Assembly: GCA_016218585.1 (NCBI GenBank)
Contig: JACRDK010000010.1
Coordinates: forward strand, 4,974-68,973
Source: Candidatus Doudnabacteria bacterium
Lineage (GTDB): Bacteria; Patescibacteriota; Doudnabacteria; UBA920
DNA length: 64,000 nucleotides
Direction: 5' to 3'
Both the position numbers and the translations under genes were made by a program. Numbering within the stretch: the stretch's first letter is position 1; each line of letters starts with the position of its first letter. The notes under the pieces were generated by a model. That model worked only from the letters and a program-made list of their open reading frames with translations. It did no database searches and had not been told where the DNA came from. This document shows positions 7,201 through 35,821 of the stretch, piece after piece.

Positions 7201-8295
7201 GTGCAATCGCTTACTAATGCTCCGGTTGATGTAACTGCGCCGGTAATTTCCTCAGTCAGCACTTCTAACATTACATCTTCCGCGGTTACGGTAAATTGGG
7301 TTACAGATGAGTTGGCCGACGGGCAATTGGAATATGGTTTAACTACCAGCTACGGCACCAGCACCCAGGTGTTCCCAACTATGTATATTAGCCACTACAT
7401 TAACCTGCCCGGCCTGGCGCCAAGCACCACTTACCATTTCCGAATAAAGAGCAAAGACGCAGCAGGGAATTTGGGAGTTTCGGCTGATGGCACCTTTACC
7501 ACTGCGGTGTACGTTGCGCCGCTTACGCCGGATGTTACCGCGCCTTTGGTTGCCATTACTACCCCAACAAATAATTCTACTGTGTCCGGTACGGTGGCTA
7601 TTTCCGTTACCGCCAGCGACCCGGCAATTAACGGAGCTACAAATTCCGGCTTGGAGGTTCTTACTCTAATTATAGACGGCGCGCAGGTAAGCAGTACAAC
7701 GGCCGGCAGCTTGGGCTACCAATTAAACACTCAAACCTTAACAAACGGTGCGCATACTATTTCCGCCACGGCTAAAGACAAGGCCGGCAATACGGCAAAT
7801 TCCGCGGTTGTAAATATAACGGTTAACAATGGGCAGCTTCCGGTGGGAGGAGTTACAAGAATTATTCACTTAACTCCGGAAGGAAAGACTGTAAATAAAA
7901 GCGTGAGCGGGACTTTGGTATTTATTTCCGCGCTAACCAAAATTGTTATTGCCGGAACAAGCATTAACTTTAGCACTAACAGCAATGGCGATTACACCCT
8001 TACAGTCCCAACCGGCCTGCCGGCCGGAGCGGGTTTGCGGGTAACGGTAAATGGATATTTGCCGCAAATCTTTACCGGCGGAGATTTAACCAGCACCGCA
8101 ACCCAAACTTTTACTTTCCCAACTTTGCCGGCAGGAGACTTTAACAACGACGGGGCCATTAACACTTTGGATTTTTCCCAAATGAATTCGCATTGGAACC
8201 AGAATTATTCCTCAGCAGATATAAACGGGGATATGCTAATTAACACTTTTGACTTCTCAGTCTTAAAAAATAACTGGGGTAAAGTCGGTCAATAA
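1210..8295 (+). CDS. Giant secreted multidomain surface enzyme: repeated Fn3-like modules, alpha/beta-hydrolase esterase-like domain (GASMGG), heparinase II/III-like polysaccharide lyase-like region, Ig-like domain, C-terminal dockerin-like repeats
   Basis: 2361-aa uninterrupted ORF with signal peptide. Fn3-like repeats (TAPxISxIxxSxITSSSATITW...YHFRVKSxD); GASMGGTGS nucleophile-elbow-like motif; HGG..HENKDNG..QRGNDYLVVDG region reminiscent of heparinase II/III; C-terminal DFNNDGAINTLDFS / DINGDMLINTFDFS dockerin-type Ca-binding repeats; strong terminator follows. Confidence 0.85.
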   Translation: MNKNLLIAVALFILGLTLISYQTQTTLTYIDVNTIQFPIGHGDVLGATTFTDSFTGNNGTSLSSHDSNWVSPDPAYLVSGLELNNNQVRTTADWAITGAMYNSSNSDTSQIVIKNTVLKSRYVCARMGLGSGKKTGYCANFASISGSNWTSVSISKNKNWLTSFSFSTPQTSDHTLKIVVSGTSSAAISVYSDETLVGSFTDSSSPLGAGGHPGFIVEGGGVQADTLFDDWSDGAGGTTASDATAPIISGIASSAITSSSATITWITDESSDTQVDFDTTLNYGQSTTLNSSQTTTHTVTLSSLLAGTYYHFRVKSRDLSGNLAISSDNTFTTASASGSGDTTAPTAPANLSSSAVTGTSATLSWSVATDNVGVSGYKVYRNNLIIGTTASNSFSDLGLSLGISYVYKVAAFDAAGNTSAFSNSLTVTTSGTSVQNPSDSIAPTVPKHLYGFRTSVSDATIIWDSSTDNVAVTSYNIYRFGIKIGSSLTTKYVDSGLVMGAGYAYSVTAVDAAGNESAQAAAVNVVMPFMSSAPGDGTCSPAGSISAAAQQNLDAIKQNLPGILADADNYDNLIAPYRNSGNGYIKDSANMVDLSVYLLRTLPVAINCSPEDFAYNFTLAKIQAIQAALPYFYGKAQAGQDAYAGMKKGVVAIKSDIDGQIDYYYFALPTNYNPATKYRLQVILHFAGSCAWEAAGIGSFKPVSADLAVGVPSSASALASTITDTVYIVPCGRGATTSYTLMAQKTILDEIADAMSRFSIDQNKITANGASMGGTGSVNMSTHMPDLFAGIGALTANADFKLPTGDYRYDGWTLGQNVGSVNYIMWNTPGDTSNYDDVNNFAANLQTLANAHPGYYKYQKYTDPAGSHGIIDPNLIAQGEASLNQSVKNPYPARVSFMTGTEQYDGAYWVHGITRSDVKLPGSIEAEVSGSTVNVTTTNLKTFNFDLSSANPLFSGKSSVSVNINGKVVTASTGGTAYFTVASGSWAYASGPDSGLYKKKGVAGPIADVFMDKPVLMVYGTKQGNNATKGRVLVDQLAQVYFGTSISGDSFMHYGKFEMKADTEVTQSDIQTKNLVLFGDSSQNSIVSNIAGSLPFQFSSSGVQINGQNYTGAKLGWSIVYPNPLNNSRYVLLVSENYNMGLTGFINAYVLQNDYVVAQGLDSGPNSRKVLAQGLFDSQWKTGGGSTAPVSNAPVINSFTSSASNVSSGQAVTLNWSLSGGGATAVSIDQGVGSVLSLTSKIVSPSANVTYTLTATNSFGSVSKQVTVTVGQQQTSVGAHPRVLVTPSFISAKKANLSSVADWPALKAKADKFVAMAVLPYDTTSTAGITSGYRGENYYDVLTTLALAYQLSGNTAYADKGVEIMQVMDNAGLCIILSESKDATLFKSLNCTSGKGDSSNGYPIRNYGAGMALGYDWLYDRLSAAQKTAFYTQINEWLDWYAVNGFEVEATPTAGNFFGGYLEALALGGFATEGENPKAAGYIAKARSLITSTVYTQFSPNGWFYGGNEPEGFAYGSDHFIRLLNSIMVFKTAQNEDLFGGKNIPEQMAKFLLHATKPNLWQMIDTGEWGGTVGGNLSLGLPMYLSQLLAGTNLGAEMQYFLQITYQPAPAGLYSTLYDATPVEKILHRDTARTAVDYRLQEPLYYEAEGTKQFFTRSAWSNDAIWASFHGGAKVYSVGHENKDNGTFTIQRGNDYLVVDGSQYRQPDGWSGYAVTGYQSCNENTLFFNDFGDYIPATAANCGGQTGTSDDVPTTFENTDKYFYSKIDLTGAYDIAGYFKDPNKKTMLHYERSFLQLRPDMFLVFDLVSSKKPNYEKKFRLHFGNEPQINGDTITASSGGSKVFVKSLLPQTPTITKRGVTIDRSGIPTLTTWETDSYNPVAVTDDALLNVIYVAPSSVSTMVPTSKVAVQSGNMQGAQIQNQGNYVVLFNSNMTAAPVQSASYQVSSLTGQVTHYLLGMQANASFKIKKDGVDLGNITSSANGVLQFTSSGSGSFTVQSLTNAPVDVTAPVISSVSTSNITSSAVTVNWVTDELADGQLEYGLTTSYGTSTQVFPTMYISHYINLPGLAPSTTYHFRIKSKDAAGNLGVSADGTFTTAVYVAPLTPDVTAPLVAITTPTNNSTVSGTVAISVTASDPAINGATNSGLEVLTLIIDGAQVSSTTAGSLGYQLNTQTLTNGAHTISATAKDKAGNTANSAVVNITVNNGQLPVGGVTRIIHLTPEGKTVNKSVSGTLVFISALTKIVIAGTSINFSTNSNGDYTLTVPTGLPAGAGLRVTVNGYLPQIFTGGDLTSTATQTFTFPTLPAGDFNNDGAINTLDFSQMNSHWNQNYSSADINGDMLINTFDFSVLKNNWGKVGQ

Positions 8296-8451: not shown

Positions 8452-8796
8452 TTATTTAAAGCTTTGGGCCAATTTGTCAAAAACTTCCGGATGTCTTACC
8501 GCTAATTCAGAAAGCATTTTGCGGTTAATCTGTACGTTCTGTTTTTTTAACATACCGGCAAACTTGCTCCAGGTTAAACCGTTTTCACGCAAGGCAGCGT
8601 TGGTTCTAATTAGCCACAGGGCGCGGAAATCGCGCTTGCGGTTGCGGCGGTCGCGGTAAGCGTAAGAGTCCGCTTTAAGCAACGCCTGTCTGGCGGAGAC
8701 AAAGTTAGTGGAGCGGCGGTTATCAAAACCTTTGGCTCTTTTTAATACATTCTTTCTTCTTTTGCTGGCGGCTACGCCGCGTTTTATTCTGGCCAT
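8452..8796 (-). CDS. rplT: 50S ribosomal protein L20
   Basis: MARIKRGVAASKRRKNVLKRAKGF... typical L20; follows rpmI. Confidence 0.95.
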   Translation of the reverse strand: MARIKRGVAASKRRKNVLKRAKGFDNRRSTNFVSARQALLKADSYAYRDRRNRKRDFRALWLIRTNAALRENGLTWSKFAGMLKKQNVQINRKMLSELAVRHPEVFDKLAQSFK

Positions 8797-21745: not shown

Positions 21746-22051
21746 TTAAACAATGTCATCTATTATAGACTGAGCTATGGCATTGTCGGCCCGCAGTTTA
21801 TAAAACACTTTTTGCCCCTGTTTGTCTTTTTCCAAAATCCCGCCTTGCTCTAAAATTTTTAAATGTTGGGAAGTGAGCGGAATGGAAACTTTAAGAATTT
21901 TGGCAATATCGCTTACGGCCAGTCTGTTGCTTTTGCCCAGCATTTCAAAAATCCGGTAGCGGTTTGTATCGCCAAGAATTTTAAAAATTAACCGTTGATT
22001 ATTGCCGTTGAAATTTTTTCTTATTTTGAGAATTTGTTTATTGGTAAGCAT
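21746..22051 (-). CDS. ArsR/SmtB-family transcriptional regulator
   Basis: RIFEMLGKSNRLAVSDIAKILKVSIPLTSQHLKILEQGGIL winged HTH. Confidence 0.8.
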   Translation of the reverse strand: MLTNKQILKIRKNFNGNNQRLIFKILGDTNRYRIFEMLGKSNRLAVSDIAKILKVSIPLTSQHLKILEQGGILEKDKQGQKVFYKLRADNAIAQSIIDDIV

Positions 22052-22674
22052 AACCGCTCCTTATATTTAATCAACCATTGGTCTTACGCTTTTTACCTTA
22101 AAATTTTGTTAAAAAATAAAAGGCGTAAGGTCAATAGCCAATTAAATACTTAATTAATAATTTAAGTATTTAGCTATCTATTTTAAGCCTACTCTCTATT
22201 ACCATTGGTGTATATAGCAAGCGCGCAAGTTATGCACTTGTTGTGAACTTTTGCGCGCTTTTTTACCCATTAATTTCATTTAAGTAGTTAATTAAACGTT
22301 TAACTGCACCACTAAATATTTCTTAAGGCTTAGTGCAGGCGGTTATGTTGTAATACGCGCATTTTGCTATATACAGGACAGGTAATAGAGCCTATGCTTA
22401 ATGAGCCAAGGAGAAAAACTTTTACATGAACATTAAAAACTGGATGCGTCTTCTAAAAACATTTCTGTTTCAATTGAGTAACTACAGGCGGCTAGCCTAT
22501 GTCAAAATAACTTAAGCTCAACATTGGAAAATAAATGGCAGCAAGACGCGTGTGTAGAAAGAGCAGGCAAAAAAATGGAGGGCGCTGCCTGCTCTGGAAA
22601 CTTTGGCCCAAGCTAACTTATAACTTAAGCCTGGCTTAAAAAAAGAAAAGCACGGGCAATAGAAAGGCAGAATT

Positions 22675-22779
22675 ATGTCAGACGACACAAAACCAGCAAC
22701 ACCTACGCCAACAACAACAGCTTCTGTAGAAACAAAACCAGAAGGCACTAAGCCAACAACTCCTCCTACAACTAAGTAG
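22675..22779 (+). CDS. 34-aa Pro/Thr-rich micro-protein (MSDDTKPATPTPTTTASVETKPEGTKPTTPPTTK), paralog of 18192-18299
   Basis: Same MSD.. start, ETKP motif and P/T composition; own GC hairpin terminator 22788-22822. Confidence 0.35.
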   Translation: MSDDTKPATPTPTTTASVETKPEGTKPTTPPTTK

Positions 22780-22787
22780 TGAAGAGC

Positions 22788-22822
22788 AAAAAGCCCCCGC
22801 AAGTTGCGGGGGCTTTTTGTAA
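22788..22822 (+). terminator. Intrinsic terminator of micro-ORF
   Basis: gcccccgcaagttgcgggggc hairpin plus TTTTT. Confidence 0.75.
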
Positions 22823-22886
22823 TTAATGCAACCTTTTTAAAAGTTTGTGGTTATACTATTATATAGAGAATAATAGTTTTCAGTTT

Positions 22887-23522
22887 ATGGATTTAGCCCA
22901 AGAACGGGAATTGGTGGAAAAATCAAGAAAAGATCCGGAAAGCTTTGGCAGGCTTTTTGATATTTACTATGGCAAAATTTTTGCCTATATTTTTAAGCGC
23001 ACCGGGCACACGCAGGCCAGCCAGGATATAACCTCGGAAGTATTTTTAAAAGCCTATAACAAACTATGGCAATTTCGCTGGATGAATTTAAGTTTTGGCT
23101 CGTGGCTTTATAAAATTGCGGGCAATGAAGTGAATAACTATTTTAAAAAAGGAAAAACAGCTCCCATTCCGGCGGAGTTTATAGAGGAACTGGAACACCT
23201 GGGAGTTTGCGCTCCCAGCGCGGAGCTGGAATTTTTAGGGCTAGAACAGCAGCAGGCATCCTTACAGGATTTGCATTTATTGCACCGGGAAATTTTAAAC
23301 CTGCCGCCAAAATACCAGGAAGTTATGGCTTTGCGCTATTTTGAAGATTATAGCTTAAAAGAAATTTGCAAAATTTTGGGGAAAAAAGAAGGAACCGTAA
23401 AATCCCTGCTGTCGCGCGGGGTGGATATGCTGGAAAAGAAATTGCAACCTAATTCTACGAATGAAGTTATATCTACGAAGACGATAATTAAAAGTACCAG
23501 CTATGAACAAACAGGAAATTGA
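22887..23522 (+). CDS. RNA polymerase ECF-type sigma-70 factor
   Basis: Region 2 (FGRLFDIYYGKIFAYIFKRTGHTQASQDITSEVFLKAY) and region 4 HTH (YQEVMALRYFEDYSLKEICKILGKKEGTVKSLLSRG); likely start at MDLAQ. Confidence 0.85.
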   Translation: MDLAQERELVEKSRKDPESFGRLFDIYYGKIFAYIFKRTGHTQASQDITSEVFLKAYNKLWQFRWMNLSFGSWLYKIAGNEVNNYFKKGKTAPIPAEFIEELEHLGVCAPSAELEFLGLEQQQASLQDLHLLHREILNLPPKYQEVMALRYFEDYSLKEICKILGKKEGTVKSLLSRGVDMLEKKLQPNSTNEVISTKTIIKSTSYEQTGN

Positions 23523-24369
23523 AAAAAGCTTAGGGGTTATGTCCCAGTGGCAACCCTTAGTCCCAACCGGACATAAACACCAGCTCAAACTGGCGCTGCT
23601 TCAATACGGATTAAAAAACCGTCCTGGCGTTTGGGCTTGGTTAAAGAAAGCGGGAAAACATATGCAACAGAATTTTAAAATAGCTTCATTTGTCGCCGGA
23701 ACTATGGTCGGCGTGTTAATGTTTAGCGGCGTGCAATACGCCAACAATTCGCCGGAGCTGGCAAAGTATAACCCGTTTGCCACGCCAACGGCGCAGGCCA
23801 AAGCCGAAGTGCGCAATGTAATGCACCGGGTGAGCTTGTTGTCGGAAGACCAGCGCGTGGAATTGGAAAAGAAATTTAAGTTAGATATGACTCAGTCTTT
23901 AAAGGAAGCTTATGAAGCAAAAGATTTGGTAATTTCCGACGCCTCCCAGTTTCAGCCGGTTGAAGGTATGCCAAATACCATTGCTTTAACGCAAAGTTCT
24001 AATGCCGGGTTTGTTACTACTTCTTCCGGAAATGCTTCCACAGCGCCTCTTAGCGTTAGCGGAGCAATGGGTTTTGCGGTTTCCAATGTGGGAACAGGGG
24101 AAGGGGCAGAAAATTCTTCCGTATCTTTGAATGCCGGAACTGTGACCGCGGTTGGCGGGATGAAGAAATTGTCTAAGCGCCTTACCTATACAGACCCTCA
24201 AGGAAATAAAACCGTACTGATGCTGGACGAAGACGGATTGCCGGTAATGAAAATGACAATGCTTTCCGATGAAGAATCTTTAAAACTGAAACAGCAAGCG
24301 GACAGGGGAGAAGTGCTAACCCTCCCGGCCACTGGAGCAACCTTTCATACGGAAGTTGAAGAAAAGTAA
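23503..24369 (+). CDS. Putative anti-sigma factor (cytoplasmic N-terminus, single TM, extracytoplasmic domain)
   Basis: Overlaps the sigma gene by 20 nt; topology typical of ECF anti-sigma factors. Confidence 0.5.
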   Translation: MNKQEIEKSLGVMSQWQPLVPTGHKHQLKLALLQYGLKNRPGVWAWLKKAGKHMQQNFKIASFVAGTMVGVLMFSGVQYANNSPELAKYNPFATPTAQAKAEVRNVMHRVSLLSEDQRVELEKKFKLDMTQSLKEAYEAKDLVISDASQFQPVEGMPNTIALTQSSNAGFVTTSSGNASTAPLSVSGAMGFAVSNVGTGEGAENSSVSLNAGTVTAVGGMKKLSKRLTYTDPQGNKTVLMLDEDGLPVMKMTMLSDEESLKLKQQADRGEVLTLPATGATFHTEVEEK

Positions 24370-24428
24370 AAAAGATAAAGTATAACTAAAAAAAACAGCA
24401 CAGGTCTAGAGCCTGTGCTGTTTTTTTG
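24334..24428. repeat. Direct repeat copy 1 (3' end of anti-sigma gene + bidirectional terminator)
   Basis: About 90% identical to 25263-25358. Confidence 0.85.
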
Positions 24429-24488
24429 ACTTGTAAATTAACCTTTAAATGTAGTATTATTAGCCCAGCCTGCGAAGGAGGCAGAATA

Positions 24489-25193
24489 GTGGAACGTTAC
24501 AAAATAAATACCGTATCGCGAGAAACCGAGCTGCAAATAGCTCAATGGGCAAAAGCGGGTTATGAACACCCGCTCACCGAGCAGTACAAGCATGGTCCGC
24601 ATTTAAATAAACTCCACAATGGCCGGTACTCGGCGAACATTGTCGGGTTTATACTCGTAGGGAAGTTCGGCGAGCCTGGCACGGCCCACGAGCGGCTTCG
24701 GAAAGTTCAGGGCCGGTATTGGGAACTGCTTGGGCTAACCGAAGACCAGTGTGCGCCCCTCGAAGATCTCGCTGCATTTCAAGACTGCAACGACATCGGC
24801 ACTGAAACCATCATCCACGATCTTTTCAACGTGTTACATCTGGAGGCGCACGTTTGCGGGGAAAACGAGTGGAGCCTCACCGGCGATTTCTTGGCTTCGG
24901 GGGCTGTTGTCATTCTGCCCGTTTCTGAACAGGCCAAAGAATGGCTCAAACTCGCTCTGGAACCTCGCAACTTCGAATTGCGGAACGTGCGCGTCAACAA
25001 TCTGTTAACAGGCATGGATGACTGCGTCGAAATGCGCGTATGCACCAACGGCGCCGGGGACTTGGCGGTCTTCGTCGACTATCAAGGTGTCAAACAGGAC
25101 GCCCTCGACCTGCGCCTCTGGTGGCTGACGAGGATGCTCAACCATTTCATGTCCAAGCGCATTGCCGCAATCAAACGTCGCGATGTGGCGTAA
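24489..25193 (+). CDS. Hypothetical protein, GC-rich single-gene insertion
   Basis: GTG start 7 nt after AAGGAGG; markedly higher GC than flanks; no recognisable family; bracketed by about 95-bp direct repeats. Confidence 0.5.
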   Translation: MERYKINTVSRETELQIAQWAKAGYEHPLTEQYKHGPHLNKLHNGRYSANIVGFILVGKFGEPGTAHERLRKVQGRYWELLGLTEDQCAPLEDLAAFQDCNDIGTETIIHDLFNVLHLEAHVCGENEWSLTGDFLASGAVVILPVSEQAKEWLKLALEPRNFELRNVRVNNLLTGMDDCVEMRVCTNGAGDLAVFVDYQGVKQDALDLRLWWLTRMLNHFMSKRIAAIKRRDVA

Positions 25194-25262
25194 CTTCCAA
25201 CATCAACCAAAAAAGCGGCCTGCGCGAAGTCTAAACTTCCGCCGGCCGCTTTGTCTATTACC

Positions 25263-25358
25263 GGAGCAATTTTTCATACAGAAGTTGAAGAAAAATAAAA
25301 AAAGATAAAGTATAACTAAATAAAAAAACAGCGCAGGTCTAGAACCTGTGCTGTTTTT
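25263..25358. repeat. Direct repeat copy 2 (pseudo 3' end of anti-sigma gene + terminator)
   Basis: ggagcaa(tt)tttcatac(a)gaagttgaagaaaa(a)taaaaaagataaagtataactaaa...acagcGcaggtctagaAcctgtgctgtttttt. Confidence 0.85.
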
Positions 25359-26070
25359 TATACTTTGGTAATACTAACTCGCCGTTATACCCATAGGAGT
25401 GCAGTATTGCTTGCCATGCCATTTGAAGTAGTTCTTGAACAGGCACATCGGACTTAATATGCAAAGGATCTTCTTTTGATCCCAATCCCTCTAACCAGCC
25501 CCACTCTAGACCTCTTGTTTCTATTCCTGCATCGTGGATAAAGCCAGACCTGACGCGAATCCATAAATGATCTATGACATCCGAAAATTTTAAAATACTT
25601 TTATTATACTTGAATAGTTCCTCGACTTTGTATCTTTTTGCAATGTCAACCTTTGTTGATTCTGGCAGATTTTCTTCAAGAAATTGAGTTATTTTCTTTT
25701 GTTTCTTATTCCAGAAACCAGCCTTTCCTTTTGCGGTAATTTCCAGCATACCGAACATTATAACAATCATAAATTGAGACCACGTAATTTCCGAATAAAA
25801 TTTATAAAGACCATTTTCTGATTCTGTATTTAAAAGAGTCTTAAGTGGCAGAGCATGTATCTCAAAATAGTTTATTGCATTTACTAGCAACTTCTTTTTA
25901 TCGTCAGCTAACTTTTACAGAGTAGGAAGAAATTCTTCTGATAGTTCGTACCCAATTTGTATGTACTTTTGCTGTTCTTGCCCCCAAGAGTGAACGCGTC
26001 CAAAATATCCTGATTCTGGGCTTAGTACTTCAATTAACTTTCGGTTGATTTTTTCGTTTTGTTCACTCAT
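25339..26070 (-). pseudogene. 243-codon ORF interrupted by one in-frame TAA (25915-25917); hypothetical protein, AT-rich
   Basis: The 51-aa N-terminal ORF (ATG 26070) and the 183-aa ORF (25890-25339) are in the same frame, separated only by TAA; ATG overlaps the upstream gene's TGA as ATGA. Confidence 0.5.
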
Positions 26071-26831
26071 AGAGCTAGATTATTCTGAGTTTTTATCTGG
26101 TGATATTCTTCAATGTTTTTACAAAGCTTGATTCCTAGATCTGTTAAACGATCAGCAGAACGTATTCCGCTCCTGTCACTATAAGTTCTATCGCTGATGA
26201 GCTTTTGGTCGATTAACATAACTTCATCATTTTCAACTAATCCTGCTGAGTTATGACCCGCTAGTCTCGCTATCGTACTTAGCCATCCACTAGCTTCTCC
26301 TGTCATAGCAAGAGTAGAATCTTCCTTCTTATAAACTTTATAAGCCGCCCTTAATGTCAAAAGTTGTGAAGATGTTAATTTTTTTGTTATTTGGAATACC
26401 TGATAATTAAGTATTTCTTCCCCGTCTTTTTCTTTGATAACTGCAAAAAACATCGCTTTTATTGCATCAAATCTGTCTTCATCAGGAGCTTCATTATCTA
26501 TAAAATTTAGCAACTCCGCAAAACTATCAACTGCATATTTTTTGTCCCCATAGTTCGGCTTAATTTTGCCTTTATCTAACAAGAATTGCAATTCTTGGCC
26601 TAGCTGCTGTTTCATCTTGCCAACCAAAGCACCTTGTAAAATTCTACCTCCTGCCAAAATTATTTCCTCTTTTCCCATAGCTAAACCCGCACTTATAATA
26701 GCAGCAATTTTTGTCTTCGGTTGATCCAAGAGTATTTCTAAATCTTTTGGATTACGGTAAGATAAAAGTTCCCCTTGAATCGCAGAGGGTTTAAATGAAT
26801 CCAACTTTTTTACTTTATTATCTTCGTTCAT
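26067..26831 (-). CDS. Hypothetical protein (AT-rich block)
   Basis: Complete ORF; translationally coupled to the downstream ORF (ATGA); no recognisable family. Confidence 0.55.
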   Translation of the reverse strand: MNEDNKVKKLDSFKPSAIQGELLSYRNPKDLEILLDQPKTKIAAIISAGLAMGKEEIILAGGRILQGALVGKMKQQLGQELQFLLDKGKIKPNYGDKKYAVDSFAELLNFIDNEAPDEDRFDAIKAMFFAVIKEKDGEEILNYQVFQITKKLTSSQLLTLRAAYKVYKKEDSTLAMTGEASGWLSTIARLAGHNSAGLVENDEVMLIDQKLISDRTYSDRSGIRSADRLTDLGIKLCKNIEEYHQIKTQNNLAL

Positions 26832-26896
26832 AATATTTTATGTGCAAATTTCATTAAATTTCAAAGTCGCAAGCTATGTAGCATATTTTTGTTAAT

Positions 26897-28024
26897 TTAT
26901 TTACCATAATTATTTAGGACAATTTTATATAGAGTTGATGTTGTCCTAGATTTTGTAAAAGTGCTTTCGTAGAGGGTTTCTCCATTATCAAGTATGTATG
27001 GGTTGTCTAAATAATATTCAGCAATAAAACCAAACATATTATGAGGAATTTCTCTATAACCTAATGCCTCAGCTAAACTTATTTTATCATTTACAATATA
27101 TGGGTTGCCATGATTCCATGAATTATCAAACAGCCAGTTTCCGTTATCGTATTGAAGGACCGTAATTGCCCATTTATGGTCACACCAATGGCATTCAAAA
27201 TCATCTTTTAAATTTATCTGAGGATGCCCTAAAATAAGACGATATGTATCATCCTCCCCTAATTTTGCCCATTTAATAAAGGTATCAGTATCGATAATAT
27301 TTATGGAGATTTTTTTGTCATTATTAATTAAATCTATGGGTTTGGTAAATTCTTCATCTGCAGGTTTTAAAACCAAACATGTCCTCGCGACGCATTCTTT
27401 ATTATATGATAAATTTGGGAGAAATACTTCTTTATAGTTTCCATTAATGTTGTCAATAACAAAATTTATAAGATTCGTTCCACTACCGCAAACATTCCCA
27501 AGCATAGTAAAAATTATTTGTTTTTTCCCCTCATTATTTAAGTCTAAAACCTGACTCTTGTATATCCATAAATCTGTATTATCATCTTTGAACTGCGGTC
27601 TAAATTCATATTTTTTATTATACGGAATAGAAAAGGCGGAAAATAGCAAATTTTGGTTTTTTCTTTCGTATATTTGAATTATTGGCGGTTTTAATGATGG
27701 TGATTTATTAGAACATTGAAGTTTAAAATTTTTATCATTTGCAATTACTAATAAAGAACCGTCTCCATAACCAGCTAAATCAACTTGTTGAATTTGGACA
27801 TCATAATCAGTACCGATTTTGTATTTAATAAATTGTGCAATCCTTTCATTGCTATAATTACTCGGTAATTTACCATAAATAAATACAGAAATAATTATTA
27901 TAAAAATATAGCTAAATAGTAGTTTTACGACATCCTTTCCTTGATCTTTTAAAATTGATAGAATAGATTTTTTTATACCTGGAAAGAAATCTTTAATTTT
28001 ATTAGTGTATTCTTTATATGACAT
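26897..28024 (-). CDS. Hypothetical N-terminally membrane-anchored protein (AT-rich block)
   Basis: TM helix near N-terminus (LLFSYIFIIIISVFIY); Cys/His cluster HWCDHKW; preceded by repeat A copy 1. Confidence 0.55.
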   Translation of the reverse strand: MSYKEYTNKIKDFFPGIKKSILSILKDQGKDVVKLLFSYIFIIIISVFIYGKLPSNYSNERIAQFIKYKIGTDYDVQIQQVDLAGYGDGSLLVIANDKNFKLQCSNKSPSLKPPIIQIYERKNQNLLFSAFSIPYNKKYEFRPQFKDDNTDLWIYKSQVLDLNNEGKKQIIFTMLGNVCGSGTNLINFVIDNINGNYKEVFLPNLSYNKECVARTCLVLKPADEEFTKPIDLINNDKKISINIIDTDTFIKWAKLGEDDTYRLILGHPQINLKDDFECHWCDHKWAITVLQYDNGNWLFDNSWNHGNPYIVNDKISLAEALGYREIPHNMFGFIAEYYLDNPYILDNGETLYESTFTKSRTTSTLYKIVLNNYGK

Positions 28025-28077
28025 AGCTTCGTTGTTGAAAAAAGCTCAGAATTATCCCGTCTCATTATAGACATTAT

Positions 28078-28135
28078 AAGTATGCTACTGTAATTTCCCT
28101 CTGTCAATTTGCTTAATTTGTCCGGGAAAGGGGAG
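28078..28135 (-). promoter_or_regulatory. Repeat A copy 1 (promoter-like: ...GGACAAATTAAGCAAATTGACAGAGGGAAATTACAGTAGCATACTTATAAT on minus strand)
   Basis: Contains TTGACA and TATAAT-like hexamers; located upstream of the 26897-28024 gene. Confidence 0.5.
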
Positions 28136-28139
28136 ATAA

Positions 28140-28169
28140 AAACAAAACACCGCTATAGGCGGTGCTAAG
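28140..28169 (-). terminator. Intrinsic terminator of 28170-28616 gene
   Basis: caccgc..gcggtg hairpin plus TTTTGTTTTT on minus strand. Confidence 0.6.
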
Positions 28170-28616: not shown

Positions 28617-28646
28617 TGAATTAAAATAGTTTAAATCACTTAAGTT

Positions 28647-28710
28647 AAGTATGCTACTGTAATTTCCCTCTGTCAATTTGCTTAATTTGTCCGGGAAAGG
28701 GGAGGGGAAA
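28647..28710 (-). promoter_or_regulatory. Repeat A copy 2
   Basis: 61/62 identical to copy 1; directly upstream of the 28170-28616 gene. Confidence 0.5.
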
Positions 28711-28784
28711 ATAGGAGAACCGCAAGCGGGGGCGCTTGCGGTTTCGTTGCTATTGTTGGTCGATGGCCGTTTGCCCCCAGGCCG
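28707..28784. repeat. Repeat B copy 1 (structured element: aaccgcaagc/gcttgcggtt hairpin + ggcc..ggcc hairpin)
   Basis: About 95% identical to 30765-30840; lies 3' of the 28798-29348 gene. Confidence 0.7.
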
Positions 28785-28797
28785 TTGGCGTCGGAAT

Positions 28798-29446: not shown

Positions 29447-29488
29447 ATTGTCAATTTGCTTAATTTGTCCGGGAAAGGGGAGGGGAAA
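29447..29488 (-). promoter_or_regulatory. Repeat A copy 3 (5' half only, retains TTGACA)
   Basis: gtcaatttgcttaatttgtccgggaaaggggaggggaaa identical to copies 1 and 2. Confidence 0.5.
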
Positions 29489-29504
29489 TTGCTATTTTAA
29501 ATTT

Positions 29505-29541
29505 TGTTGACATCTTTCACATTTGTGAACTATATCAACAA
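29505..29541. promoter_or_regulatory. Operator-like nested palindrome O2 (TTGTTGA..TCACATTTGTGA..TCAACAA)
   Basis: 7-bp outer inverted arms around a TCACA/TGTGA core; followed by conserved AAATTGYYATTTTAAA. Confidence 0.5.
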
Positions 29542-29582
29542 GTTAATTTTATTTAGAAAAGGAAAAATTGTCATTTTAAAAC

Positions 29583-29620
29583 TTGTCTAAAACTCTCACA
29601 TTTGTGAATATTTTAGACAA
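29583..29620. promoter_or_regulatory. Operator-like nested palindrome O1 (TTGTCTAAAAC..TCACATTTGTGA..GTTTTAGACAA)
   Basis: 10-bp perfect outer arms plus the same core; near-identical to 30697-30734. Confidence 0.55.
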
Positions 29621-29659
29621 ATTGGTTTTATTTTATTTAAGGAAAGGGGAGGGAATTGG

Positions 29660-30484: not shown

Positions 30485-30696
30485 AGTTGTTCTCCATCAT
30501 CCGGATGCCTGTTTTACCAGGTACTGCCATCTCCGGCAGCGAACTACGCGTAAAATACGCACAGATCGCTGCCGAAGAATAAACTCCTCCTTTACGACAT
30601 TAAAGTATATCAAAAGGCTTAGAAATGTCCAGGTTAATTTATAAAAAATATTTATCTATTCTAGAAAGGGTAATTAAAAAATTGCCATTTTAAATC

Positions 30697-30734
30697 TTGT
30701 CTAAAACTCTCACATTTGTGAATATTTTAGACAA
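30697..30734. promoter_or_regulatory. Operator-like nested palindrome O3
   Basis: 37/38 identical to O1. Confidence 0.55.
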
Positions 30735-30764
30735 GTTGATTTTATTTTATTTAAGGAAAGGGGG

Positions 30765-30840
30765 AAAATAGGAGAACCGCAAGCGGGGGTGCTTGCGGTT
30801 TCGTTGCTATTGTTGGTCAATGGCCGTTTGCCCCCAGGCC
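30765..30840. repeat. Repeat B copy 2
   Basis: See copy 1. Confidence 0.7.
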
Positions 30841-30868
30841 ACTAGCGAGAATCAGGGTTCGTCGCGCT

Positions 30869-31888: not shown

Positions 31889-31960
31889 ACAACTCCTCCT
31901 TGTTGAAGTATAATACTGTGAGGCATAGTAGCAAAAAGCAATAACAAAGTCCAGGTATGA

Positions 31961-32000
31961 ACAAGCGCCGGGTCCGCGGGGGTGCGGACTCGGCGCTTTG
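31961..32000. repeat. 40-nt GC hairpin repeat copy 1 (AACAAGCGCCGGGTCCGCGGGGGTGCGGACTCGGCGCTTT), terminator-like
   Basis: Near-identical copy at 33707-33745; both followed on minus strand by promoter-like ctggacttt..tata region and an RBS-bearing gene. Confidence 0.7.
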
Positions 32001-32020: not shown

Positions 32021-32539
32021 TTAACCGCTGGCCTTTTTCCAAATAAGGCTTAAGGCCAGAGCGGCTAAGCTGATCCAAAACCACCAGTTGTACAGCTTGG
32101 TGTGCGGATACGACTTGTGGTCCGGCGGCAGGATTAAAATGAATTTGTCTTTTCTCTTTATCATCAGCCTGTCCCTAATGAGAGAAATGAACAGCTGGTC
32201 GTCCGGCGGTTCATTCGACAAGTTGTATCTGATTGTCGCTTCCTGAATCTCCACCAGGTTGTTGAACCAGATTTGAAACGGAGGCGACGCCGGGTTAACC
32301 GCGAAATGAAGGTCGGTTTTCTTTAAGCCGTAACCTCTGAGGTGGGTGACGGCTGTGTCGATGTTTTTCTGGCAGTCCTTCATATTTTTGGCAAACACGG
32401 CTTGCCGCAAGGGCTGCTCTACCTTATTGGCGAAGTCGTAGCCGTGGTGCCACCTGAGAATCAGGCACAAAGCCAAAGCGGCGAAGGCCAGGGAAATCAT
32501 CGCTTCTTGCCACGGAAAGAATCTGTTATTCACGTTTTC
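32021..32539 (-). CDS. Single-pass membrane protein, paralog A (WFNNL motif)
   Basis: Best start GTG 32539 with AGGAGG RBS; TM ISLAFAALALCLIL; paralogous to 32563-33096. Confidence 0.5.
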   Translation of the reverse strand, partial: ENVNNRFFPWQEAMISLAFAALALCLILRWHHGYDFANKVEQPLRQAVFAKNMKDCQKNIDTAVTHLRGYGLKKTDLHFAVNPASPPFQIWFNNLVEIQEATIRYNLSNEPPDDQLFISLIRDRLMIKRKDKFILILPPDHKSYPHTKLYNWWFWISLAALALSLIWKKASG

Positions 32540-32562
32540 CTCCTGAATGCTGTGCGAGTGTC

Positions 32563-33096
32563 TTAATATCCGTTGTCGTCCTTTGCAACCCACCAGCCAA
32601 GACCGCCTACAAACATCATCGTGCTTACCAAAGCCCAACACAGGTAGAGGATGCCGTAGGGGTAGGTGGAGATGCCGGTAGGTGATTCAACCACCAGAAG
32701 TCCTCGCTCTTCCTTAAGAATTTTCTCGCGGACAGTTTCGAGCATTTCTTCGCCTGAGGGGAAGAAGCCCTCCTGTCCTTGCCTCTCTAGCGCTTCTTGA
32801 AGGTTGGCCAGGTTGTTAAACCACGCCTGCGTGTCGGAGATGTTTTGATTGCGCGGCGCATTGTTCGGAGTTTTCTGAAAACCCATCTCCTTCAGGTGCG
32901 AGATAGCTACGCTTAAGTGCTCAAGGCATTCCTTGGTGCTCTTGGAGTAAGCGGCACGACTCAAAGGTTCTTCGATGTTGCGGTTGAACGCTGTGAGGTT
33001 TGAAATAGACATCAGGACGCAGAACAGCATTAACAGCAATCCTATGCCCGCGATGTTCACGCTCAACGGTGTAGCTTCTTTGTTTTGCGTTTGCAT
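32563..33096 (-). CDS. Single-pass membrane protein, paralog B (WFNNL motif)
   Basis: Shared blocks: basic-Cys..H(L)xxxG..KT..AWFNNLANLQEA; N-terminal TM. Confidence 0.5.
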   Translation of the reverse strand: MQTQNKEATPLSVNIAGIGLLLMLFCVLMSISNLTAFNRNIEEPLSRAAYSKSTKECLEHLSVAISHLKEMGFQKTPNNAPRNQNISDTQAWFNNLANLQEALERQGQEGFFPSGEEMLETVREKILKEERGLLVVESPTGISTYPYGILYLCWALVSTMMFVGGLGWWVAKDDNGY

Positions 33097-33635: not shown

Positions 33636-33706
33636 CGAGTCCTCCTTGCAGCAAACTATACCAAACTGTTCAAAAAAAGTCCAGATTTATAAAAAAGTAA
33701 AAATTA

Positions 33707-33745
33707 ACAAGCGCCGGGTCCGCGGGGTGCGGACTCGGCGCTTTT
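33707..33745. repeat. 40-nt GC hairpin repeat copy 2
   Basis: See copy 1. Confidence 0.7.
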
Positions 33746-35431: not shown

Positions 35432-35821
35432 TGGTGGAGATGCCGGGAGTTAAACCCGGGTCCAAAACTAATTCACTTTCCAATTGTTCACAAGATTAGC
35501 TAAGTTTAATACCTCTATAACAATAACTTAGCAAATAGTTATAAAGGGCGATTTACGTGTCTTAAGCTTGCGGGTGCAAATCAAATCCGCAAACAGCAGT
35601 CCAAAATGAACCCGGCGATCTTAGGTTTGGACAAACTTAAGGCCGGGATCTCAGCTTAATAAATTAAGCTAAGACTGGTTGTAAGTCGGCGTTTTGAAAC
35701 GCGGCTACAACTTTATTCCATGCGTTAGCATTTGTTTGTGTCCGAGGGATTTACGAGTCTTCAGACTGGCTCGTCTTGCATATTAGAAAATGTCAAAGTC
35801 CTGTCAAAATCCGTCATCCCC
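35432..35821 (-). ncRNA. ssrA: Transfer-messenger RNA (tmRNA, SsrA)
   Basis: Minus strand 5' GGGGAUGACGGAUUUUGACAGG (compare GGGGACGUUACGGAUUCGACAGG). 7-bp acceptor stem pairing with 3' CAUCUCC-ACCA including the G3:U70 wobble. T-arm CCGGG-UUUAACU-CCCGG. Internal tag-like ORF ...DLQPVLA-TAA. -35/-10 promoter just upstream. smpB is present 9 kb away. Confidence 0.8.

Follow-up and report, generated by a model that had tools for sequence, protein, structure and literature searches.

In a 64-kb window of the genome of a Candidatus Doudnabacteria bacterium, a single gene of foreign composition lies between two imperfect direct copies of a roughly 100-bp segment that carries the 3′ end of a putative anti-sigma factor gene and a terminator hairpin. 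The window, i.e., the whole stretch of DNA analysed here, comes from a metagenome-assembled genome (MAG; locus tags HY918_01890 and HY918_01895) of an uncultured groundwater bacterium belonging to the Candidate Phyla Radiation. On balance, we favor the view that an autonomous single-gene unit was inserted at this site and that about 102 bp of target were duplicated around it. This would mean that a compact uncultured genome can accept a ready-to-express foreign gene without breaking its neighbors: since the segment that closes both flanking genes was copied, none of the genes lost its stop or its terminator. The terminator duplication is a well-documented one-off scar and not a new mechanism.

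Repeat pair and enclosed unit

Copy 1 of the direct repeat occupies positions 24331-24432 (102 nt) and copy 2 positions 25260-25365 (106 nt). In a global alignment 93 of the 106 columns are identical, corresponding to 88% identity with gaps and 91% without. The differences amount to nine substitutions, one 1-nt indel and one 3-nt indel. Each copy is composed of three parts, namely the final 12 codons and stop of a 288-aa open reading frame (ORF), an A-rich spacer, and a two-way terminator hairpin located at about 24389-24427 in copy 1 and about 25322-25360 in copy 2. Copy 1 closes the 288-aa ORF, which ends with TGATFHTEVEEK and a stop codon. The counterpart in copy 2, TGAIFHTEVEEK followed by a stop, is a non-coding relic and belongs to no listed ORF of at least 50 aa. 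Both hairpins have a stem of 14-17 bp, with A and U runs flanking it on either strand, and when folded on either strand they reach −22 to −27 kcal/mol (z-scores of −5 to −7.5). That the hairpin acts as a bidirectional intrinsic terminator is plausible from these features. A preliminary description of the locus, made from the sequence, had reported direct repeats of ~95 bp and ~90% identity with the anti-sigma gene end and a terminator, and these were borne out, although they proved slightly longer than claimed.

The repeat is not a dispersed element. Its 20-nt hairpin core occurs exactly twice in the window when up to three mismatches are allowed (0.00 expected from shuffled sequences), and the terminator pattern gave no match in the genome collection. 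A search of the metagenome collection with the coding-end pattern returned two unrelated chance matches and nothing else. The anti-sigma codons immediately left of copy 1 (24296-24330) resemble the insert terminator left of copy 2 (25213-25247) at 27 of 37 positions, a similarity reached by 7 of 2000 shuffles. A leftward extension of the duplication to 24296 was set aside because this segment is equally alignable to the terminator of a relative of the unit in another metagenome (3 of 2000 shuffles), and the resemblance was treated as unexplained and not counted as part of the repeat.

The two copies are separated by 827 bp (24433-25259), an interval that holds one ORF, a 234-aa orphan gene on the plus strand (24489-25193) that starts with GTG and has an AGGAGG ribosome-binding site 7 nt upstream. 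The single GC-rich gene noted in the preliminary description is thus indeed what lies between the repeats. A consensus scan identified a sigma-70-like promoter, TTGTAA-18-TATTAT, on the plus strand at 24431-24460, with its −35 box at the junction of repeat and insert. Downstream of the gene is an intrinsic terminator (25212-25259, plus strand) that consists of a hairpin at 25212-25252 with −27.3 kcal/mol and a T-rich tail to 25259. With promoter, ribosome-binding site, gene and terminator of its own, the 827-bp insert reads as an autonomous transcription unit. The 234-aa gene has a GC content of 54% (window mean 42.8%) and a GC content at third codon positions (GC3) of 64%, as compared to 48% for the anti-sigma gene, 33% for the downstream gene and 41-47% for housekeeping genes in the window. 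Judged by composition, the insert is foreign, and its predicted anatomy is like that of a phage moron, which is discussed below.

The strongest evidence for insertion came from relatives of the unit in other loci. Three relatives of the 234-aa protein were found among 5.8 billion proteins, with 56-68% identity. One, in another metagenome (locus L002), adjoins an ArsR-type regulator; one (L003) adjoins an unrelated 243-aa gene; and one (L004; GCA_041890195.1, 55% GC) lies 3′ of a CHASE2/guanylate cyclase gene, with ~400 bp of non-coding DNA between them. A translated comparison showed that the unit is the only thing these three loci have in common with the 64-kb window. The L002 and L003 genes are GC-rich (59% and 52%) within AT-richer flanks, and the four unit copies are only ~70% identical in DNA. 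The promoter is kept in L002 (local alignment score of 33, reached by 0 of 2000 shuffles), the −10 box and ribosome-binding site are also conserved with L003, and the terminator can be aligned with that of L002 (3 of 2000 shuffles score as high). Window and L002 are homologous in DNA from 24431, in the −35 box, through the coding region to the end of the T-run at 25259. The unit limits defined by L002 thus deviate by only 1-2 bases from the inner edges of the repeats (24432 and 25260). The assignment of the unit as the inserted entity and of the repeat as the duplicated target appears well supported, most strongly by this coincidence of limits. By the same comparison, the unit is a portable module that is present alone in unrelated loci. 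The preliminary description had named a conserved partnership of the gene with the anti-sigma factor as a finding that would speak against insertion; this fails, since the three relatives occur in unrelated contexts without sigma or anti-sigma genes.

The relatives did not confirm that the gene always stands beside duplicated terminators. No repeat was found in the L002 flanks, and the L003 flanks gave only a weak, AT-rich repeat (reached by 6 of 500 shuffles). In L004 the gene lies between two copies (7691-7730 and 8622-8661) of a ~35-nt palindrome, GGTCGAGG-N5-CCTCGACC, with the loop flipped. This palindrome is also present at 7422-7445 and looks like a dispersed REP-like element. The preliminary description had proposed insertion with duplication of the terminator and terminator targeting; the single foreign gene and the duplicated convergent terminator agree with it, and targeting of terminators as a recurrent property of the gene is not supported by the relatives, which show no repeat, a weak one and a short REP-like hairpin, respectively. 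Synteny of L002 through its ArsR-like neighbor gave no detectable homology to the window, and microhomology at the right junction, between the start of copy 2 and the L002 flank, was not significant (433 of 2000 shuffles).

No match to the 234-aa protein was obtained in Pfam (E ≤0.1), PHROG, PADLOC, NCBIfam or PDB sequences, and the phage, plasmid and IMG/VR collections yielded nothing either. When 1.8 billion cluster representatives were searched with a profile, a few further proteins came up; they stand alone, measure 92-135 aa and match residues 10-114 only. The N-terminal ~100 residues are a domain that is also found alone (P0006-P0009 and P0011; 92-135 aa), with the motif ..HP..EQYKHG..LN..GR[YF][ST]A..FGF.L.GKFGDP.., and this domain has no Pfam family and no structural neighbor. 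A first structure model of the 234-aa protein was poor (pLDDT 47). AlphaFold2 with nine sequences gave a confident two-domain model (pLDDT 88), for which Foldseek found no neighbor in PDB or BFVD. The copy-2 relic is in frame with the 234-aa gene (25191-25298), with no stop between the two TAA codons, so that read-through would add 34 residues; the shared frame is probably due to chance.

The genes on either side of the repeat pair reveal what the site probably looked like before insertion. To the left, on the plus strand, an ECF-type sigma factor gene (22887-23522; 211 aa in the contig described below, longest ORF starting at 22845) matches Pfam Sigma70_r2, Sigma70_r4 and r4_2 and scores 83.6 bits against the NCBIfam sigma70-ECF superfamily (cut-off 42.9). 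Its end is overlapped by the 288-aa orphan gene of the ORF list (23503-24369, plus strand), and the label anti-sigma is a guess from this position only. The 288-aa protein has one hydrophobic segment; it matches nothing in Pfam, PHROG, PADLOC or NCBIfam, and its sole match among the 5.8 billion proteins is itself. No close relative of the sigma factor was found in the genome collection. The sigma, anti-sigma and 254-aa proteins were found in one contig of one sample only.

To the right, a convergent gene of a widespread ~240-aa Patescibacteria family (25339-26070, minus strand) is split in one frame into ORFs of 51 aa (25915-26070) and 183 aa (25339-25890) by an in-frame TAA at 25915-25917. 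Its 80 homologues of 230-260 aa are uninterrupted and can be aligned over both parts, and the TAA could reflect a pseudogene, a sequencing error or read-through. The stop codon of ORF 25339-25890 lies in the hairpin loop of copy 2, so that the minus-strand gene takes its final codons and its stop from this terminator, as had been described. Because family members end in LPKYK, the codons in the hairpin arm are native to the convergent gene. On the minus strand of copy 1 there is an in-frame relic of the last nine codons of that gene (KSKKQHRL and a stop, versus KYKKQHRF and a stop in copy 2), which indicates that the ~240-aa gene already was the convergent neighbor when the duplication arose. 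The relic and the family end support the proposed ancestral order in which the anti-sigma gene and the downstream gene converged on a shared terminator. The duplicated segment can then be read as spanning codon −12 of the anti-sigma gene through roughly codon −9 of its convergent neighbor. In loci L010 and L011 (1420-6720), from other Patescibacteria, the ~240-aa gene directly follows a HindVP-type restriction-modification system, Vsr and an AAA_15/AAA_21 ATPase, which hints at an association of the family with defense islands.

It is very improbable that the structure results from an assembly artefact, i.e., a mis-join or a collapsed repeat in the MAG. The source is a MAG and the locus was seen in one sample only, but an independent Logan contig of 6084 bp from run SRR12113407 matches window positions 22048-28131 with 100% identity and thereby spans the insert together with both copies. 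Exact words common to the two copies reach at most 23 nt, in the A-rich spacer, so assemblers using longer words would keep the copies apart. The Logan contig is intact at the terminator duplication and breaks inside a perfect 59-nt repeat at 28077-28135, which is where the real assembly ambiguity sits. Reading frames, promoter and terminators are moreover all coherent. The assembly error that the preliminary description had raised against its own reading is thus unlikely.

Routes of insertion and rival explanations

In the proposed event, the entry point would be the far edge of the bidirectional terminator common to the anti-sigma gene and the ~240-aa family gene, and the duplicated target (24331-24432) would comprise this terminator together with the 3′ ends of both genes. 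With such a target, all three transcription units would keep an intact 3′ end and a terminator. The unit carries no mobility enzyme, so host recombination or repair would have made the event. The route we favor is that a small circular intermediate integrated by a single crossover in the ~100-bp segment, as has been proposed for the promoter/stem-loop mini-circles of T4-type phages; alternatively, a staggered break or template switching could have been followed by fill-in. Both routes yield the observed topology. The molecular route and the sequence of events are inferred, and the preliminary description's replication slippage or unequal recombination would likewise be conjectural.

Several points weigh against insertion with target duplication. 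No empty site or donor sequence was found in any collection searched, nor was a polymorphic variant, so that insertion is deduced from one genome. The ~10% divergence between the copies, if it arose in place, implies long survival of a deletion-prone structure. A circle must already have carried the locus-specific segment, and this presupposes a previous event. Where the unit has relatives elsewhere, no comparable duplications flank them. Finally, only the stem-loop is repeated and not the promoter, so the analogy with phage promoter/stem-loop elements would be partial for this repeat.

A clearly less probable, though serious, explanation is two-step recombination between diverged strains, in which the two copies are alleles and not the product of duplication on the spot. 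In one lineage, the unit would have taken the place of the DNA on the right side of the terminator; DNA of a ~10%-diverged relative, beginning within that relative's own anti-sigma 3′ end and including the AT-rich genes, would later have been joined illegitimately just after the unit terminator, anchored by homology further to the right. The divergence of the copies fits inter-strain divergence, and in the coding part of the repeat four of the five substitutions are at third codon positions and three are synonymous. The same bias is also expected for divergence in place, since copy 1 is under coding constraint. The AT-rich genes to the right are foreign by composition (GC3 21-33%) and belong to families found in variable contexts, and the region is rich in repeats that could act as homologous anchors. 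This explanation requires more events than a single insertion-duplication, and because of the relic in copy 1 the convergent gene would have to be lost and then regained. The collections searched yielded no donor-like sequence.

We regard it as improbable that an unrecognised enzyme, either site-specific or making staggered cuts, targets terminator hairpins and moves the unit in trans as a non-autonomous cassette. The two copies would in that case be attachment sites or a very long target-site duplication. The occurrence of the unit in four unrelated loci would fit such a cassette, as would the position of the L004 unit between two short hairpins, the bracketing of several nearby single genes by 59-130-bp repeats, and the recurrence of the purine-rich sequence GGAAAGGGGAGGGGAAA at junctions of repeat families at 28.1-29.7 kb. 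The Pfam scan covered the ORFs of 9.8-21.3 kb, 22.8-35.3 kb and most of 36-58 kb, and neither in these nor in the insert was a transposase, integrase, reverse transcriptase, recombinase or Cas1-like domain detected. The repeat search found no terminal inverted repeats pairing the sequence from 24433 with that up to 25259. L002 is without a flanking repeat and that of L003 is weak. What flanks the gene in L004 is a short palindrome of dispersed occurrence, with a flipped loop, and not a 100-bp duplication. The ~70% DNA identity among the four copies gives no sign of recent transposition.

Diversity-generating retroelements are common in this bacterial radiation, and two imperfect ~100-bp repeats, one of them at the 3′ end of a gene, resemble a template repeat (copy 2) and a variable repeat (copy 1) at the end of a target gene. 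This reading has next to no probability and was rejected because of how the substitutions are distributed and because no reverse transcriptase was found: only four of the nine substitutions are at copy-2 adenines, the others being C/T, TT/CC, G/A and T/G; the intervening protein has no Pfam match at E ≤0.1; and no reverse transcriptase domain occurs in the neighbors. Furthermore, two thirds of the repeat is non-coding terminator. The unit also lacks the features of an integron cassette. Integron cassettes are usually promoterless and bounded by attC ends of the form RYYYAAC ... GTTRRRY; the ends of the repeat do not match this pattern, the unit is equipped with a promoter, and no integrase domain was found in the scanned ORFs.

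The neighboring orphan-gene stretch

The 11 kb from the anti-sigma gene to the tmRNA gene (35432-35821, minus strand), which bounds this stretch, contain small minus-strand orphan genes of alternating low and high GC. Direct repeats of 59-130 bp, consisting of promoter or terminator DNA, bracket orphan genes here, and at least two of the repeat pairs enclose a single gene, like the terminator duplication. The preliminary description had not mentioned this recurring architecture or the tmRNA gene at its boundary, nor the promoter and terminator of the insert or the in-frame stop in the convergent gene. Integration of an island at the tmRNA gene was rejected: no second copy of the tmRNA 3′ end was found in the window, and no integrase was found in the scanned ORFs.

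A promoter-like element (TTGACA-17-CATACT, minus strand) occurs at 28077-28135 and 28646-28704 with 59 of 59 positions identical, and a 40-nt part of it recurs at 29449-29488 (40/40). The three copies precede three successive unrelated minus-strand genes, and the first two bracket one AT-rich membrane-protein gene. An AT-rich, palindrome-containing element of 87 nt is present at 29563-29649 and 30677-30763 (95% identical), and a terminator element of 87-90 nt at 28704-28790 and 30761-30847 (~94% identical). These palindrome and terminator families are joined in different combinations (29484-29649, 30677-30847 and 28704-28790), and one pair brackets a GC-rich 258-aa gene. A GC-rich terminator hairpin beginning with AAGCGCCGGGTCCGCGGGG is found near-identically at 31957-31998 and 33703-33745, 1.7 kb apart, with ~105 nt of intergenic DNA around the two hairpins being 72% alike. 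The purine-rich sequence GGAAAGGGGAGGGGAAA has four matches (28125-28141, 28694-28710, 29472-29488 and 29641-29657; 0.2 expected) and sits where repeat families change partner; it could be a preferred crossover point. The adjacent minus-strand ORFs 32021-32641 and 32563-33096, which encode small membrane proteins, share a 33-nt stretch with 79% identity and the motif ..QxWFNNLxxxQEA.., and are likely tandem paralogues.

A rather doubtful extension of these observations is that the 11 kb form a chromosomal orphan-gene nursery, in which autonomous single-gene units would be gained, lost and shuffled via 60-130-bp repeats of terminator and promoter DNA and small circles without a dedicated recombinase. 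If so, an ultra-small episymbiotic bacterium would possess a cellular equivalent of the promoter/stem-loop shuffling of T4-type phages, and the terminator duplication would be its oldest visible event. The origin of many orphan genes of the Candidate Phyla Radiation is poorly understood. If the same process built the adjacent stretch, it would offer a simple, enzyme-independent route of gene gain in this group.

Comparison with known systems

Orphan genes of T4-type phages can be flanked by ~100-bp conserved intergenic elements, and such promoter/stem-loop (PeSL) cassettes provide a close parallel (Arbiol et al., 2010, PMC2839356; Comeau et al., 2014, PMC4122927). PeSL elements start at the upstream stop codon and hold an AT-rich stretch and a terminator stem-loop, and the insertions occupy harmless intergenic sites and bring along their own expression signals (PMC2839356; PMC4122927). 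Recombination between flanking copies was proposed to excise or insert the gene as a mini-circle (PMC2839356). The repeats at 28.1-30.8 kb, with a terminator hairpin and a sigma-70-like promoter, match these elements closely. The terminator repeat duplicates a stop codon, an AT-rich stretch and a stem-loop but no promoter, and it differs in having only two copies and in including 39 nt of unique coding sequence. The location here is a bacterial chromosome and not a recognisable phage, as there were no convincing PHROG matches, and circles are only hypothetical in this case.

In its organization the unit resembles the morons described by Hendrix and colleagues, which are reportedly autonomous promoter-gene-terminator units inserted between phage genes. 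It likewise consists of a single gene of deviating composition, with its own promoter and factor-independent terminator, located between two genes. A phage signal is missing here, as examined with PHROG and the phage and IMG/VR collections, and we know of no morons described with 100-bp flanking duplications. Campbell-type (single-crossover) integration would produce this very topology, with the homology segment repeated directly on either side of the insert and both neighbors intact, but the circle carrying a locus-specific 100-bp segment is hypothetical and the copies are now ~90% identical.

Direct repeats that include the 3′ end of a target gene, with copy 1 restoring the gene and copy 2 displaced, are also reminiscent of islands inserted by integrases, and a tmRNA gene, a classic island target, is located 10 kb away. 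The element differs from such islands by lacking an integrase and by measuring 827 bp with one orphan gene. If the copies are viewed as candidate att-like sites, the longest stretch of identity they share is 23 nt of A-rich spacer. As with insertion sequences and transposons, a direct target duplication abuts the insert, but it is 102/106 nt long instead of a few to ~15 bp, and there is neither a transposase nor terminal inverted repeats. The insertion is a variant of known ways of gene acquisition, i.e., a moron-like unit, insertion-duplication and PeSL-like shuffling, in an unusual host.

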